64,000 nt of DNA from Candidatus Norongarragalinales archaeon (GCA_038884755.1 JAWABJ010000001.1:636953-700952), one strand, 5' to 3'; counted from the first letter of the stretch, positions 22,999 to 49,719 are shown. Notes: a model not told the origin generated them from the sequence alone. Program-made: numbers and translations.

Positions 22999-24648
22999 TT
23001 ACATGTCCATGCCGGGACCGCCCGCTCCGCCCCCGCCAGGAGGCATTGCAGGCGCCTTGCCCTTGGAAGCGATTATGTCGTCAATGCGCAAAATCATTTC
23101 AGCGGCTTCGCTCGCAGACTGCATCGCCTGTTTCTTCACGCGAACCGGCTCTATGATTCCCAAATCACCCAAATCGTGGACGCGCGCCTTGTAAACGTCT
23201 ATTCCCAAGCCGGAGTTTTTCTTCTCGTGCTTGCTGCGCAAGTCCACGATAGTGTCAATGGGGTCCAGACCACAAGACTCGGCCAAAGCACGTGGAATCA
23301 CTTCCAGCGCTTCGGCGAAAGCGTGAATGGCCAGCTGCTCCCTTCCACCGACTTCAACCGCGTATTTGCGAAGGCGCATCGCCAACTCCATTTCAGTGCT
23401 GCCCCCGCCAGTCACGTACTTGCCATCCTCAACCGCAGACTTGACAGAGCCTATGGCGTCAACCAACGCCCGTTCAGCCTCGTCGACAACATGCTGCGTG
23501 CCCCCGCGAACCAAAAGCGTAACGCTTTTCGGGTCCTTGCACTTTTCTACGAAAACCATTTGCTCGCCCGCGACCTTGCGCTCTTCAACCAGCCCGGCGT
23601 GGCCCAAATCCTTGGTCCCGAGGTCGTCGAGAGTGGTTACAATGCGGGCGCCAGTAGCGCGAACGAGCTTTTCCATGTCGCTCTTTTTCACGCGCCTTGC
23701 GGAAAGTATTCCTTTCTTGGCGAGATAGTGCTGCGCAACGTCATCAATGCCCTTCTGGCACATGAGCACGTTCGCTCCGGAAGCCGCGATCTTGTCCACC
23801 ATTGCCCTGAGCATTTTCTCTTCCTGCTCCAAAAACGCGGTCATCTGCTCCGGCGAGGTTATGGAAATCCGCGCGTCAGTCTCAGTCTTTTCTATCTCCA
23901 ACGCCGCGTCGAGCAAAGCGATTTTAGCGTTCTCGATTTTTTTGGGCATTCCCGGGTGCACCACTTCCTTGTCGATGAGCACTCCGTTTATGAGGTTGGT
24001 CTGCATTACGTCCCCGCCCTGCTTTTTCTCTAGCTTAATGTAATCCTTGTCCACAGTAATCTTGCCGGCGCTTTCAACTGCAACTTGCGTTACCGCGTCT
24101 ACAACCATTTTCGCGAGAAAATTGCGGGCTTCGCCAGCTGAAACCGTTTTGCTCCCCATGGAAACAGCCGCGATTTTCTCGAGCGTAGCCTTGTCTTTCA
24201 AGCCCACGGTTTGCGAAACGGAATGCAATTCGTCAATCGCCTTTGCAGAAGCCATTTTGTAGCCCGCGATTATGGTCGAAGCGTGAATCGACTGGTCGAG
24301 CAAGTCTAACGCATTCTTCAAAAGCTCTCCCGAAAGCACGACAGCAGTAGTCGTCCCGTCGCCCACTTCCTCGTCCTGGGTTTTCGCGATTTCGACCATC
24401 ATTTTTGCAGCAGGATGCTCCACGTTCATTTCCTGCAAAATCGTGGCGCCATCGTTCGTTATCACTATGTCGCCCATGTCTGAAACCATCATCTTATCCA
24501 TTCCCCGCGGGCCTAGAGTCGTTTTGACTGCCGAAGCCACGGCATACGCCACGGCAATATTCGTCCTTTGCGCATCCCTTCCCAATAGCCTTGAAGAGCC
24601 TTCCGGCAACACCAAAACGTTTTGTCCGTTAATTTGTCCTTGAGTCAT
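22999..24648 (-). CDS. ths: thermosome subunit (group II chaperonin)
   Basis: 549 aa; equatorial ATP motifs (GDGTTT), apical domain, C-terminal GGM/GGAGG-rich tail. Confidence 0.95.
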
Positions 24649-27490: not shown

Positions 27491-27631
27491 TGCTCCGCCC
27501 GGGATTCGAACCCGGGTTGCTGGCTGTCCATACGGCCTTTCTTTTTTCGTCGAGGTTTTTTCTTTCCGCGAAAGAAAAAAAAAAGGTCGTTTGAAAGGCC
27601 AGCGTCCTGGACCGGACTAGACGAGCGGAGC
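27491..27631 (-). tRNA. tRNA-Glu (UUC) with ~66-nt intron after the anticodon loop
   Basis: Acceptor GCTCCGC/GCGGAGC+A, D GTCT/GGAC, anticodon stem CTGGC/GCCAG loop CTTTCAA, T-arm CCGGG-TTCGAAT-CCCGG; intron contains T10-CTTTC-GCG-GAAAG-A6 hairpin. Confidence 0.8.
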
Positions 27632-42924: not shown

Positions 42925-43273
42925 GCTGTGCAGGTTTTCTCGAGGGGTAGTCTCACGATTAGAAACATCAAAGCTTTACAGCTCTGCTTCCAAACAATTG
43001 TGAGGTTATGGTCGTTAGTAACGCTCGGCTGAACACCTCGCTTGCGCTTGGTGCGTACACCTGCGTCCTATCAAACTCATCTGCTATGAGTGACCTAAGC
43101 CGCTTCGTTTCAGGATTGGCTTCGTCCTTAGCTAGGCAGCAGTTTTTCCAAGGTTTTTTTCCTACGGAAAAAAAGCTTATGCCTTCAGGACTTATCCTAA
43201 TGGCGCGTGGCTACCCTGCTTGCTTGCAAACAACAGGCGAACCAGAGGCGCCGGATCGATGTTCCTCTCGTAC

Positions 43274-43975
43274 TTATCGATCCTTCCCTTCAAGCGGCCA
43301 AACAATCCTAAAAGATGCAACCGAACTGTCTATGTCGCCTCTTCTAGAACGCTTAAGCAATTCAAAACGAAACACTTTATCCGGATGAGCCGAATCAAAA
43401 CAATCGTAAAACTTCAACACTTGCTCGCTCCCGTGAACCATCAACGCAAACATTTGCGTTTGGCTTCCTTTCTTAACGTACGGCCCGCAAACGCGTCCGC
43501 AGCGAACTCCGAATTCGGAAACGATTTCCTTTATTTCGCCCAGAACACCCTGGTTGGCTTGAGCCAAATAAACCCGAATGTCCTTTTCAGGAATGTTCAA
43601 AGTCGTTTTCTCGAAGGAATTAACGCTTCCCTCCGCATCGAAAAAACCCCGGACGTAAGCCGCCTTAAGTTCTCCAGAGCCTTTTGAAATCCACGTTGGG
43701 GTTAGCCAAGTGGATTGGTCTCCGTTGAATTCAGCGAACTTCGAAAGTTCTTGAAAAACTTTCTTGGAAGTAATGCTCAAACACCAAACGCCATGCCGCT
43801 CGTCGAAGTAAAAGCTAGCGTTCTTGCCGAAATTCCTTTCGAGAATTCCGGCCAAAAGCTCGAGCCATCGTTTGCTCTTTTGGTAAAACCCGATTCGATA
43901 AATGCCTTGTTCAGGAATGCTCGTGATGTTTCCATCACGCAAGGCTCCGATCAAGTAAGCGATTTCTTCATTCAC
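43274..43975 (-). CDS. double-motif LAGLIDADG homing endonuclease (GTG start assumed at 43975; last 19 codons run past the 3' splice site into exon 2)
   Basis: Motifs LIGALRDGN and GFFDAEGSV; ORF-track N-terminal 78 codons (43976-44209) are translated 23S exon/intron-5' sequence and rejected. Confidence 0.7.
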   Translation of the reverse strand: MNEEIAYLIGALRDGNITSIPEQGIYRIGFYQKSKRWLELLAGILERNFGKNASFYFDERHGVWCLSITSKKVFQELSKFAEFNGDQSTWLTPTWISKGSGELKAAYVRGFFDAEGSVNSFEKTTLNIPEKDIRVYLAQANQGVLGEIKEIVSEFGVRCGRVCGPYVKKGSQTQMFALMVHGSEQVLKFYDCFDSAHPDKVFRFELLKRSRRGDIDSSVASFRIVWPLEGKDR

Positions 43976-44070
43976 GATTAATCCGAAATCTTCCTCTGCT
44001 TTTAAATCTTGAGAGAGTGGCTTTCCAGTGCTTCCAGTGAATTGCCTATGATTGTGCGTTCTAAAAGAGG
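43331..44070 (-). mobile_element. archaeal (bulge-helix-bulge type) intron in 23S at the I-CreI-like site (E. coli ~2593), carrying a LAGLIDADG ORF
   Basis: Splits AACGUCGCGA|GACAGUUCGG; intron termini CCUCUUUUAGAACGC...GCGUUCUAGAAGAGG are complementary (long terminal helix typical of archaeal rRNA introns); no group I core elements. Confidence 0.7.
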
Positions 44071-44191
44071 TCGCGACGTTCTGAACCCAACTAACGTAGG
44101 TCTTTAATGGATGAACAACCCAACCCTTGGTGGCTCCTGCACCACCAGGATGACCTGAGCCGATAGCGATGTACCAAACCGCGGTGTCGAT

Positions 44192-44393
44192 TTGTCCTTT
44201 GCAGAACAATCTTTCCCGCCCCCTACGCGTTGAGCGTCAGAGTTCAAACCGGTCACTAACATCTTTTGCGAGAGATTACCTAAACCTAACCAGCATGGAT
44301 GCCAGTGTCGGTTTAAACGAAGACTGATCGCTCAAAACACGGGGTTGAAAAAGAAAGTTCCATTCGCCTTTCAAATGAAAGAAAGGGGAAAAA
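44192..44393 (-). mobile_element. ~200-nt insertion in 23S between GAGAGUUCAU and AUCGACACCGCGG (E. coli ~2500 site); ORF-less, type undetermined
   Basis: Flanking exon sequences align to conserved domain V; insert lacks group I R/S elements; contains CCUUUC...GAAAGG hairpin. Confidence 0.5.
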
Positions 44394-44517
44394 ATGAACT
44401 CTCAACCGCGACGAGCCTGTTACCCCCGGGGTAGCTTGTCTGTCAGAATGAGCCCTCATTAAAAGGGCATCATTGTTCGTTAAGCCCTGCTTTCGCACCT
44501 GCGACCCATAAAACAGA

Positions 44518-44555: not shown

Positions 44556-44984
44556 ATTTGTTAAGATCACAGTCAATCCAGCATTTGTCTTTGACCCTCT
44601 ACAACGCATTTCTAACGCGTCTGAGCTGAATATTGGGCGCCTTTGTTATCTTTTCGAAGGCGTGCCGCCCCAGCCAAACCACCCACCTGCAGCTGTCTTT
44701 CTTTCGAAATGAGCAATGCAGTCGAAAAATAGCAGTGTCACACTTTCGCCTATCGCACTCCCGGAAGAGTGCGCTTGACGGCTCCTGCTTACGCTTTGAT
44801 TCTCCAACCGAATTACAACAACAGGCTGTGGTTAAGCTCCACGGGGTCTTCGTTTCCCTTTAGGATTCCTCGGCATGTTCACCGAGAAGTAGGTTCACCA
44901 GGTCCAAGGTAGGGACAGCAAGACAGTCGTTACGCCATTCATGCAAGCCGCCAATTAAGCGGCGAGGTACTACGCTACCTTAAG

Positions 44985-45709
44985 CAACTTTTCGTATGCA
45001 TTTTGCACTGAAAAGCTGGACTATATCTTCACCGTCTTAGGGTGTTCGGCGTATAGTCTCTGAGGATCCTGTCTTTGCGTCCAACTCTTGCATTATTTCA
45101 TCCAAAGTGCTCTTGCGTTGTTTTCCTTCCAAATTCATTCGGAAGGCCAAGCGCACGAGTTTTTTGAACGAGTCAAGGTCGGAATGCTCTTTTCTTTCTA
45201 ACGCTTCAACAATTTCCTTGAACAGAAGAAAGTCTTTCTCTTTCGAGACAAGCGGATACTTGTCGAAAAAAGGAATTACTTTCTCCGCCAACTGCCTTCG
45301 GTTGTCTACAACGAACTGCATTAATTCCGGTTGACCGTGTTTTTCCACGACCCTTCCGCAAGAAAGCCTGCTTCGGAATAAATCCAAAACCGCTTGTCCT
45401 TGCTTGTGTTGGGTTACGTGAAAAACCGGGTCTAAAACCAACCCGAATTTTGCAGTGTCTTCTTGTTTTAAAGACACGTTGAAACAACCTTCAGCGTCGG
45501 CGAATCCGCTCAAGAAAAAATCGGCGTTTCTTCCTTTCGTGAGTTTACTCAACCCAGCCATAGGCAACCACCTTTTTGGTTCTTTTAAAATTACAGTTTC
45601 CTGCTGATAGCATTCAACGTTTCAAGCTCTTTTCCTTACTCAGGGTCTTGAAACTCCCGCGTTCCAGCATACAGCCGAATTTAGCGACTCCCTTTAACTT
45701 GATTGCTCA
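44985..45709 (-). mobile_element. group I-like intron in 23S (E. coli ~1917 site) carrying LAGLIDADG ORF
   Basis: 5' exon ends ...GACUCU (U at -1) pairing with internal guide GGGAGUC (U:G at splice site); P-like AACGCGGGAG, Q-like UAUCAGCAGG, R-like CAGAGACUAUACG, S element AAGAUAUAGUCC (exact consensus), P9 hairpin, terminal G; ligated exons restore ..UAACUCUGACUCU|CUUAAGGUAGCG. Confidence 0.7.
45037..45567 (-). CDS. single-motif LAGLIDADG homing endonuclease (TTG/ATG start), encoded from P6 region through P7/P8 of the group I intron
   Basis: LSGFADAEGCF motif; 176 aa; R element encoded as ...SETIRR..., stop codon in P8 loop. Confidence 0.75.
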   Translation of the reverse strand: MPMAGLSKLTKGRNADFFLSGFADAEGCFNVSLKQEDTAKFGLVLDPVFHVTQHKQGQAVLDLFRSRLSCGRVVEKHGQPELMQFVVDNRRQLAEKVIPFFDKYPLVSKEKDFLLFKEIVEALERKEHSDLDSFKKLVRLAFRMNLEGKQRKSTLDEIMQELDAKTGSSETIRRTP

Positions 45710-46023
45710 AGAGTCAGAGTTACTCCCGCTCTTTGCCAGTCCTTTGCTCCCTTGAAAAGGAGTTTGAGATACTGGTAGTGAGCAGGCGTCAACCATCGTA
45801 CTCAACCTTTCGGTTTTGCGATGATTTGTGTTTTTGATAAACAGTCGCTGTCTCCTTGCCACTGCGACCTACAAACCCCCAATCGACAAAGTCTATGGAA
45901 GAATGTAGGCAGCCCTTCTTCCGAAGTTACGGGCCTAGATTGCCGAATTCCCTTACCATGGTTCTCCTGCCACGCCTTGGCTTGCTCTGCCAGGACCACC
46001 TTTCAGTAAAAAATTTCTTTGGG

Positions 46024-48053: not shown

Positions 48054-48274
48054 ACTCGCAGCGCGCGGCTGTCAATTATTATGACAGGGGAACGAAGAGA
48101 GGCGAATGAAATTTGCAAAACGCTTTTTTGATCAAACTTTTTTCGAAAAAAAGTTTGTCCATTGCAGAGTTAGACTTAAAGGATAGCTTCTATCCTCCGT
48201 TTTACTTTGCCCAAATTAGTTCCCGGAACAAATGGAGGTGATCTAACCGCAGGTTCCCCTACGGTTACCTTGTT

Positions 48275-48490
48275 CATGTAGTTCCACATGTCGCCATGCG
48301 GCATGGACTATATCATCATCTCAATTTCTTGAGCGTCTGCGTGTAGTCTCTGAGGGGTCAATCATTTTCATGACGACTTCCCTGCTGATAGACCCCACCT
48401 GAACCGTTGCCGGTTCAGGATACACGGGTTGTTCCAGCATACAGCAGATTTTGTCTGCATCCTCGCGGATGCAGGTCGCAACATAAGTTT
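48275..48490 (-). mobile_element. 216-nt ORF-less group I intron near 16S 3' end (between GUCGU and AACAAGGUAACC; E. coli ~1506 site)
   Basis: U at -1 with IGS GCGAC pairing exon GUCGU (U:G); P2 CUGCAUCC/GGAUGCAG, P5 CUGAACCG-GCAA-CGGUUCAG, Q-like UAUCAGCAGG, R CAGAGACUACACG, P8 CUCAAGAAAUUGAG, S GAUGAUAUAGUCC, P9 CCAUGCCGCAUGG, terminal G; core elements near-identical to the 23S L1917 intron. Confidence 0.7.
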
Positions 48491-49031
48491 ACGACTTAAC
48501 CCTCCTCATGAAGATCTAGCTCGAATGCGACCGAAGTCGCAGCCTCACTAAAACCTCACTTGGATGGCTTGACGGGCGGTGTGTGCAAGGAGCGGGGACA
48601 TATTCACCGCGCGATGATGACACGCGATTACTAGGGATTCCAACTTCATGGGGGCGAGTTTCAGCCCCCAATCTGTACTGGAGTAGGGTTTAGGTGATTG
48701 CCTCCGCCTTTCGGCGTCGGAACACATTGTCCCTACTATTGTATGCCACGTGTGGCCCAGCAGATTCAGGCCATACGGACCTAGCGTCGCCTTCTCCTTC
48801 CTCCCACTTAACGCGGGCAGTCTCCACAGAGTGCCCTCCGAATTGCTTCGAAGGTAGCAACTGTGGACGAAGATCTCGCTCGTTGCACGACTTAACGTGA
48901 CACCTCACGGCACGAGCTGGCGCTGGCCATGCAACACTTCTCGGCTTGTTGGCTAAGATCTTTAGTCTGAGCTTCATACTGCCGTCTCTGCTGGTGAGTT
49001 TCCCGGCGTTGAGTCCAATTGAACCGCAGCA

Positions 49032-49719
<688 letters not shown>

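Follow-up and report, generated by a model that had tools for sequence, protein, structure and literature searches.

A predicted mobile IB4-type group I intron with a LAGLIDADG gene at the L1923 site of a Micrarchaeota 23S rRNA gene

The stretch of DNA analysed in this work (the whole 64,000 nt of it being referred to as the window) very probably carries, on its minus strand, a mobile group I intron of the IB4 type that interrupts, after U1923, the 23S rRNA gene of an archaeon belonging to the Micrarchaeota. The intron is 725 nt long (44985..45709; all of its parts mentioned below lie on the minus strand as well), and its limits were set by the minus-strand reading, by the alignment with the LSU model and by the boundaries of its homologs, the first intron base being the U at 45709 and the last one the G at 44985. 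The central claims of the original prediction, that is, a group I intron located in a 23S gene and harboring a single-motif LAGLIDADG gene, hold, and both the boundaries that it had proposed were reproduced exactly by the reading of the sequence. The anatomy of the intron, its homology, the covariation of its helices and the intactness of its parts were observed, and from these we infer the activities, i.e., the splicing of the intron and the cleavage by its product. The assignment to the IB4 subgroup would follow from the homology to a published IB4 intron, IB4.18 (locus L007 of our set), with which the window intron aligns throughout; IB4 is among the subclasses typical of introns lacking P2 (Haugen 2007, PMC1995217).

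[quoted passage not shown] When the region (~44901..45800, minus strand) was aligned with the Rfam archaeal LSU model, a single unaligned insertion of 730 nt appeared after ...GGGAGUAACUCUGACUCUU; the joining of the exons, GACUCU to CUUAAGGUAGCG, regains both the length and the sequence of the archaeal consensus. The 5' exon ends with GACUCU (45710..45715), six bases that also represent the 5' strand of P1; they were placed by sequence, by LSU alignment and by the pairing with the guide, and the final one, located in helix 69, is taken to be U1923 on the basis of a count along this helix anchored at U1911, U1915, U1917 and U1939 of E. coli. On the other side, the omega G with which the intron terminates (44985..44985), identified as such by its occurrence in 20 out of 20 introns, is followed by the 3' exon CUUAAGGUAGCG. 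The boundaries of L007, derived in the same way, correspond to MNVH01000001.1 10442-9750, that is, exactly to intron IB4.18, which is listed as LSU/1923 on a Micrarchaeota contig (Nawrocki et al. 2018). The true L1917 relative found in this work (L029) has its site 6 nt upstream and a different guide sequence. Based on the helix 69 count and on the coordinates of L007 being identical to those published, the insertion site is assigned to L1923, i.e., the I-CeuI site, and not to L1917, to which the original prediction had likened it. As for the host organism, whose archaeal nature had gone unmentioned in the original prediction, it is, judging from its thermosome gene (22999..24648, minus strand), a DPANN archaeon of the phylum Micrarchaeota: this gene shares 100% identity with an NCBI protein of a 'Candidatus Norongarragalinales archaeon' MAG, and its next-best named matches come from Micrarchaeota, for which IB4 introns at LSU/1923 are already on record (Nawrocki et al. 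2018).

The secondary structure of the ribozyme was first assigned manually, and constrained folding was subsequently applied. P1 is formed by the exon bases GACUCU and by the guide sequence GGAGUC (45686..45691), recognized through its exon complementarity in the 20 introns compared, and the wobble between U1923 and G19 marks the splice site; the exon pairing and the U.G at the splice site that had been predicted are therefore both present. The P10 strand AAG (45692..45694), placed by pairing and by the constrained fold, has as its partner CUU of the 3' exon (44982..44984), a pairing shared by the archaeal members, and an equivalent of P10 exists in the bacterial homologs, where the 3' exon starts with CC and GG lies upstream of the guide. 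P2 is absent between P1 and P3. The two strands of P3, UUCGGC (45674..45679) and GCCGAA (45045..45050), were both identified by covariation, the latter being embedded in the ORF and closing the P3/P7 pseudoknot. P4 pairs UGCUGG (45664..45669), invariant in the 20 sequences, with UCAGCA (45602..45607), placed by the core alignment and by pair counts; they correspond to the true P element (UAUGCUGGAAC) and to the Q element (AUCAGCAGG), respectively. The sequence previously proposed as P (AACGCGGGAG) really represents J4/5 plus the 5' strand of P5, the true P4 strand being located a few bases upstream; the Q element and the R and S ones (CAGAGACUAUACG and AAGAUAUAGUCC) had been correctly recognized.

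The remaining helices complete the core. P5 (GCG/UGC, only three base pairs in the window intron), P5a (GUUUCAAG/CUUGAAAC) and P5b (CCU/AGG, closing a GAGUA loop) span 45610..45660, according to the constrained fold and to a homolog-only model. P6 (GGA/UCC) is continued by P6a (CUGU/ACAG), which closes the loop holding the ORF; their common 5' strand GGAAACUGU (45593..45601) is based on pair counts and on the MFE fold obtained for the core after deletion of the ORF, and the 3' strand ACAGGAUCC (45064..45072, within the ORF) on pair counts and on both the MFE and the constrained folds. Pair counts and the homolog-only model also place the two strands of P7, namely, GAGACUAUA (45052..45060), which has one bulged A and contains the R element within the ORF, and UAUAGUCC (45018..45025), which contains the S element. 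P8 is the hairpin CACC-CUAAGAC-GGUG (45030..45044; pair counts and constrained fold), the loop of which includes the stop codon UAA of the ORF (45037..45039), and P9 is the hairpin AGCUUUUC...GAAAAGUU (44986..45017; MFE fold) with the inner stem GUGCA/UGCAU; this hairpin had been predicted together with the terminal G, and both were found. This MFE fold recovered P6, P7, P8 and P9 but neither P4 nor the pseudoknotted P3, as expected when a pseudoknot is present. Finally, the G89-C133 pair, the bulged A90 and the G91-C132 pair of P7 are invariant in the alignment of the core described below (A1), and the conserved G-C pair beside the bulged base would represent the G-binding site.

Relatives of the ORF were scanned in one genome per species, and 30 loci were found to encode them, both in Archaea (Micrarchaeota, Thermoplasmata, Altiarchaeota, Aenigmatarchaeota and one Asgard archaeon) and in Bacteria (Patescibacteria, Acetothermia and other bacteria). 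Introns could be delimited at 19 of these loci, 16 of them at L1923, one at L1917 and two (L006 and L016) at L1931. The interpretation of L029 as an L1923 intron was rejected, in that the intron would not end in G, and the L1917 site with the guide GUAGUU fits. In all the 20 introns (the 19 ones plus that of the window) the upstream exon ends with U and the intron with G; moreover, each of them possesses a guide for its own exon, consisting of 4-7 contiguous base pairs including the G.U wobble (5-7 in 19 out of 20), whose end is located 4-5 nt upstream of P3 in 18 introns, 26 nt upstream in L001 and 10 nt upstream in L029. The exon/guide pairs observed include GACUCU/GGAGUC, GACCCU/GGGGUC, GACCGU/GCGGUC, AAUCGU/GCGAUU, AACGGU/GCCGUU and AGACU/GGUCU, as well as AACUAU/GUAGUU at L1917 and UAAGGU/GCCUUA at L1931, so that the covariation between guide and exon holds across three insertion sites in the 20 introns.

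The core blocks of the 20 introns were then brought into a gapless alignment of 138 columns (A1); P5 was left out of the counted structure, and the registers of P5 and P6a differ between the archaeal and the bacterial members. Standard pairs account for 93.2% of the cells, versus 31-42% when the 3' partners are slid by 1-3 columns. The values observed were reached in none of 500 shuffles for four out of five whole-structure measures and in 11 out of 500 for the further pair types, but these shuffle statistics are inflated, because the homologs were chosen via the ORF and are mutually related; the slid-partner control is unaffected by this. Among the single helices, P3 is paired in 100% of the cells, with compensatory changes at four out of six pairs, P7 in 97.5%, with two compensatory pairs, and P8 in 93.8%, with compensatory changes at all four pairs. 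The P4 and the inner P6 pairs show no variation and are hence uninformative, GGA/UCC being essentially invariant, and P6a reaches only 76%, covarying in the archaeal register. The failure of secondary-structure modelling to form the P3-P7 pseudoknot had been indicated as a finding that would speak against the intron; both helices (UUCGGC/GCCGAA and GAGACUAUA/UAUAGUCC) form and covary across the 20 introns, so that the pseudoknot forms and is under selection.

A covariance-model search, also suggested with the original prediction, gave a consistent picture. Two models were built from the 19 other introns only, and the whole window was searched with them: the model of the 3' domain (R1, P6' to P7') matched 45015..45074 with 72.2 bits (E = 2.1e-16), and that of the 5' domain (R2, P3 to P6) matched 45592..45684 with 68.5 bits (E = 7.8e-15). 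Both halves of the intron are thus matched by models made of homologs only, far beyond chance. The Rfam model Intron_gpI (RF00028) scored 27.2 bits (E = 9.6e-5), which is below its gathering score of 50; it aligned the 3' part, with R and S, properly, and misaligned the 5' half into the ORF. Since the 525-nt ORF in L6 splits the model, and since Nawrocki et al. (2018) likewise report no significant matches of RF00028 on archaeal sequences, we ascribe this sub-threshold score to a limitation of the model, and not to a failed membership of group I.

The ORF is threaded through the catalytic core, as had been predicted: it starts in the P6 loop, crosses P6', J6/7, P7 and P3', and stops in L8. Its 3' end reads GGA UCC UCA GAG ACU AUA CGC CGA ACA CCC UAA; the tail of the protein, ...SSETIRRTP, spans the R element (originally described as encoded as SETIRR), and the stop codon UAA falls in the loop of P8. 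The ORF ends in or past P7/P3' in 17 out of 20 introns and before the R element in the other three, and the homologous ORFs run across the core in all three reading frames, with tails of the SSETIRR, DPQRPYVGH or ILRD type. The use of all three frames and the three ORFs stopping before R suggest that the tail is under no selection at the protein level.

The gene itself (45037..45561) codes for 174 aa plus the stop codon and contains a single LAGLIDADG_1 domain, as revealed by Pfam, by its relatives, by the PDB matches and by the invariant residues. The 176-aa ORF originally described is correct as to the presence of a single LAGLIDADG gene, but probably not as to its start: the ATG at 45561 is the most likely one, rather than the TTG at 45567, and it is preceded, six bases upstream and in the P6 loop, by a Shine-Dalgarno-like GGUGG (45568..45572), recognized from the sequence. 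Motifs of the GGAGGUGA type precede the ATG in archaeal homologs and are complementary to the 3' end of the 16S rRNA, GAUCACCUCC. Pfam PF00961 (LAGLIDADG_1) matched the 176-aa ORF in one stretch, residues 19-120, with 73.1 bits (E = 3.8e-20), in agreement with the single motif claimed. The motif is LSGFADAEG, with E24 invariant in 17 aligned proteins, and all the 24 invariant columns of the alignment of these proteins are satisfied by the window ORF; the endonuclease gene therefore looks intact. Relatives of the ORF number 206 at E<=1e-3, the best one sharing 94% identity, and few of them carry source names (Nitrososphaera, Micrarchaeota and Vogelbacteria). Among the PDB matches, single-domain chains, that is, I-Vdi141I (3e54, 169 aa, E = 2e-25), I-CeuI (2ex5, 207 aa, E = 1e-21) and 5gkk (170 aa), were matched over their full length, and double-domain monomers of the I-OnuI type in each half. 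The enzyme had been likened to I-CreI: it is indeed single-domain, but its best single-domain relatives by sequence are I-Vdi141I and I-CeuI. I-CreI itself is absent among the 60 PDB matches listed, where the only I-CreI-type entry that we recognized is 3mx9 (E = 3e-10), presumably the engineered single-chain scV3V2.

On the basis of this anatomy, a mechanism modelled on the standard group I chemistry can be proposed. In the pre-rRNA, the guide GGAGUC and the exon end GACUCU would form P1, whose U.G wobble would define the 5' splice site, and the P3-P9 core, with its P3/P7 pseudoknot, would fold round the G-binding site of P7. An external guanosine would attack the 5' splice site; the terminal G (44985) might then occupy the G-binding site of P7, P10 (AAG/CUU) positioning the 3' exon, and the ligation of the exons would restore helices 69-71 of the 23S rRNA. 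The gene located in the P6 loop, provided with its own Shine-Dalgarno sequence, would give the 174-aa single-domain LAGLIDADG endonuclease, which should act as a homodimer cutting intron-less 23S genes around position 1923 (putative intron-less target UAACUCUGACUCUCUUAAGGUAGC, putative target duplex sequence UAACUCUGACUCUCUUAAGGUAGCG), and the repair of the cut, which is expected to have 4-nt 3' overhangs like those produced by other LAGLIDADG enzymes, would copy the intron in.

Two different interpretations of the insertion have to be weighed. According to the first one, it might be a group I-derived element that does not self-splice, either because it is decaying or cofactor-dependent, or because it is retained in the rRNA or fragments it. 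Group I introns that stay unspliced or depend on proteins have precedents, an unspliced 23S intron of Chlamydiales being cited in the reference list of PMC11270868. In addition, the P5 of the window intron is short, its L9 has no GNRA-type tetraloop, at variance with the many homologs that possess GUAA, GCGA or GUGA, and its activity is itself a prediction drawn from the sequence. However, all the core helices are intact, the window scores as well as the members of the family against the homolog-only models, and the ORF is full length with every invariant residue present. Furthermore, a single rRNA operon is present in the window, and an insert of 725 nt left between helices 69 and 71 would be expected to disrupt a functional centre of the ribosome. 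We regard this first interpretation as very improbable.

The second interpretation is that of an archaeal bulge-helix-bulge (BHB) intron, cut by the tRNA-splicing endonuclease and retaining only a vestigial resemblance to group I. The archaeal BHB introns of rRNA genes that host I-DmoI, I-PorI and I-Vdi141I share with the window intron an archaeal rRNA host and a LAGLIDADG endonuclease but differ from it in the splicing mechanism, those of I-DmoI and I-Vdi141I being of the BHB type processed by the tRNA-splicing endonuclease; the window intron has a complete ribozyme core and no BHB at its junctions. Such an identity appears extremely improbable. In its favor are the archaeal host, in which rRNA introns are classically of the BHB type and carry LAGLIDADG genes (PMC6125680), and a probable BHB-type intron located further downstream in the same 23S gene. 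However, a construct of the two junctions folded into P1 and separate hairpins, with no end-joining helix and no bulges at the splice sites, and this reading was rejected for the absence of a BHB motif at the exon-intron junctions. The downstream insertion just mentioned (44070..43331, ~740 nt), which served as the control, folded with its two ends zipped together in a long helix beside the splice sites. Moreover, the full group I core is kept with compensatory changes, which implies selection on the ribozyme fold, and the same intron family is present in bacteria, which, to our knowledge, lack the archaeal splicing endonuclease.

The group I intron at L1923 can now be compared with the systems already known. 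IB4.18 (Nawrocki, Jones and Eddy 2018, NAR) has the same host gene, insertion site and phylum as the window intron, aligns with it in every core block, and harbors a LAGLIDADG_1 gene ~60% identical; it is 693 nt long versus 725 nt. However, it belongs to another species, its peripheral sequences (P1 loop, P5a and P9) are unlike those of the window, and its exon/guide pair is AGACU/GGUCU instead of GACUCU/GGAGUC; the genome of the window is absent from Table 1 of Nawrocki et al. 2018. Ce.LSU.5/I-CeuI of the Chlamydomonas eugametos chloroplast (2ex5) shares with the window the rRNA target site and the single-domain chain, the two proteins matching with E = 1e-21 (query 13-137 versus chain 51-180), and I-CeuI is described as a LAGLIDADG enzyme that acts as a homodimer at LSU position 1923 (PMC3315327). 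It differs in being organellar and longer (a chain of 207 residues), the window protein being closer to archaeal/CPR enzymes and to I-Vdi141I.

The cyanobacterial and Thermotoga introns at L1917 and L1931 (Haugen et al. 2007, PMC1995217) resemble that of the window in lacking P2 and in possessing a single-motif LAGLIDADG gene whose ORF begins in P6 and extends across P7, P3 and P8; their sites are neighbouring ones on the same rRNA helix, and the relatives found here at these sites (L029, L006 and L016) share the core of the window intron. They differ in their position, 6 nt upstream and 8 nt downstream, respectively, with matching differences in the guides, and in their bacterial hosts. The 23S introns of CPR/Patescibacteria (e.g., that of I-ShaI; PMC11270868) encode enzymes of the same LAGLIDADG_1 family, and five loci of our set, L018, L020, L022, L025 and L026, whose MAGs are labelled as Vogelbacteria, Falkowbacteria, Kerfeldbacteria, Dojkabacteria and Saccharibacteria, share the L1923 site and the core. 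In contrast to the window, the CPR introns have exons AAUCGU or AACGGU followed by CCUAAGG, a long hairpin in the P1 loop and another register of P6a, and the proteins of the five loci share only 29-47% identity with that of the window.

For the window intron, insertion site and subgroup, enzyme family, overlap between ORF and core, and host phylum are all already described: IB4-type group I introns with single-domain LAGLIDADG genes at LSU/1923 are known from archaea, Micrarchaeota included (Nawrocki et al. 2018), from organelles (the I-CeuI site) and from CPR (PMC11270868). Existing knowledge is left unchanged by the window intron; nevertheless, it adds to the archaeal group I introns on record one well-resolved example, whose boundaries are exact, whose secondary structure is complete and whose endonuclease is apparently intact, and which might be used for self-splicing tests in a DPANN archaeon and for the mining of a new 1923-site meganuclease.

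A further question concerns the relationships between neighbouring sites. We can speculate, with considerable reservation, that one IB4 ribozyme lineage moved repeatedly among L1917, L1923, L1931 and the 16S site S1498 by changing its guide only. Relatives with the same core occur at three neighbouring 23S sites, the guide fitting its own exon each time, and the archaeal L1931 enzymes (L006 and L016) share 51-53% identity with that of the window, the delimited bacterial L1923 ones sharing 29-47%. In addition, an ORF-less copy of this core is present at SSU/1498 in the operon of the window. If this idea, which we consider rather unlikely, were true, the movement of the lineage between sites would point to reverse splicing or to endonuclease retargeting, and the window would represent a snapshot of intragenomic site-hopping within one rRNA operon.

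A second group I intron, 216 nt long and with no ORF, was found in the 16S gene of the window (48275..48490, minus strand). It is inserted after U1498, the upstream exon ending with AAGUCGU, and its terminal G is followed by AACAAGGUAACCG. It has the core type of the L1923 intron. With Rfam Intron_gpI its score (51.8 bits) exceeded the gathering score, and the two models made of homologs only gave 40.8 and 39.5 bits; SSU/1498 is a reported archaeal site (Nawrocki et al. 2018). The 3' end of the 16S gene is located near 48234, the position 48443 given by the whole-window alignment being wrong.

Other insertions are present in the same operon, which appears to combine ribozyme-type and endonuclease-type introns. 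In the 23S gene, an insertion of ~740 nt (43331..44070, minus strand) follows ...AACGUCGCGA, at about A2598 of E. coli, and contains an ORF with two LAGLIDADG_3 stretches; its two ends complement each other (CCUCUUUUAGAACGC / GCGUUCUAGAAGAGG), pairing is possible between GUCGC of the exon and GCGAC of its 3' end, and searches for a group I signal found none even at E<=1. Its probable identity is that of an archaeal intron of the endonuclease (BHB) type, in which case group I and BHB-type introns would coexist in one gene. An insertion of ~204 nt with no ORF (~44191..44394, minus strand) after GAGAGUUCA, at about position 2477 of E. coli, might represent either a mini-intron or an expansion segment. 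In the 16S gene, a 658-nt insertion (~49030..49690, minus strand) at position ~846 of the model, which corresponds roughly to 900-910 in E. coli, harbors a 194-aa LAGLIDADG_3 ORF (49061..49645) and gave no group I signal; it is probably another archaeal-type intron. The 23S gene runs ~1 kb past the 3' end assigned by Rfam on the whole window (44036), that is, over ~42990..44036 (minus strand), and a sub-scan placed model positions 2465-2879 on 43100..44500. Additional insertions of ~50 nt occur at LSU model position ~2850 and at SSU model position ~637.

Three of the loci encoding relatives of the ORF (L012, L014 and L015) lie on contigs of 597-1023 nt binned as Thermosynechococcus, Alphaproteobacteria and Flavobacteriales; their endonucleases are 53-57% identical to that of the window and are found beside a bacterial-type 3' exon, CCUAAGGUAGC. 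They could represent either mis-binned rRNA fragments or a cross-domain spread. Lastly, elsewhere in the window, the Rfam tRNA model matched 141 nt (27491..27631, minus strand) with 46.3 bits, where ARAGORN reported no tRNA; this is probably an intron-containing tRNA gene.
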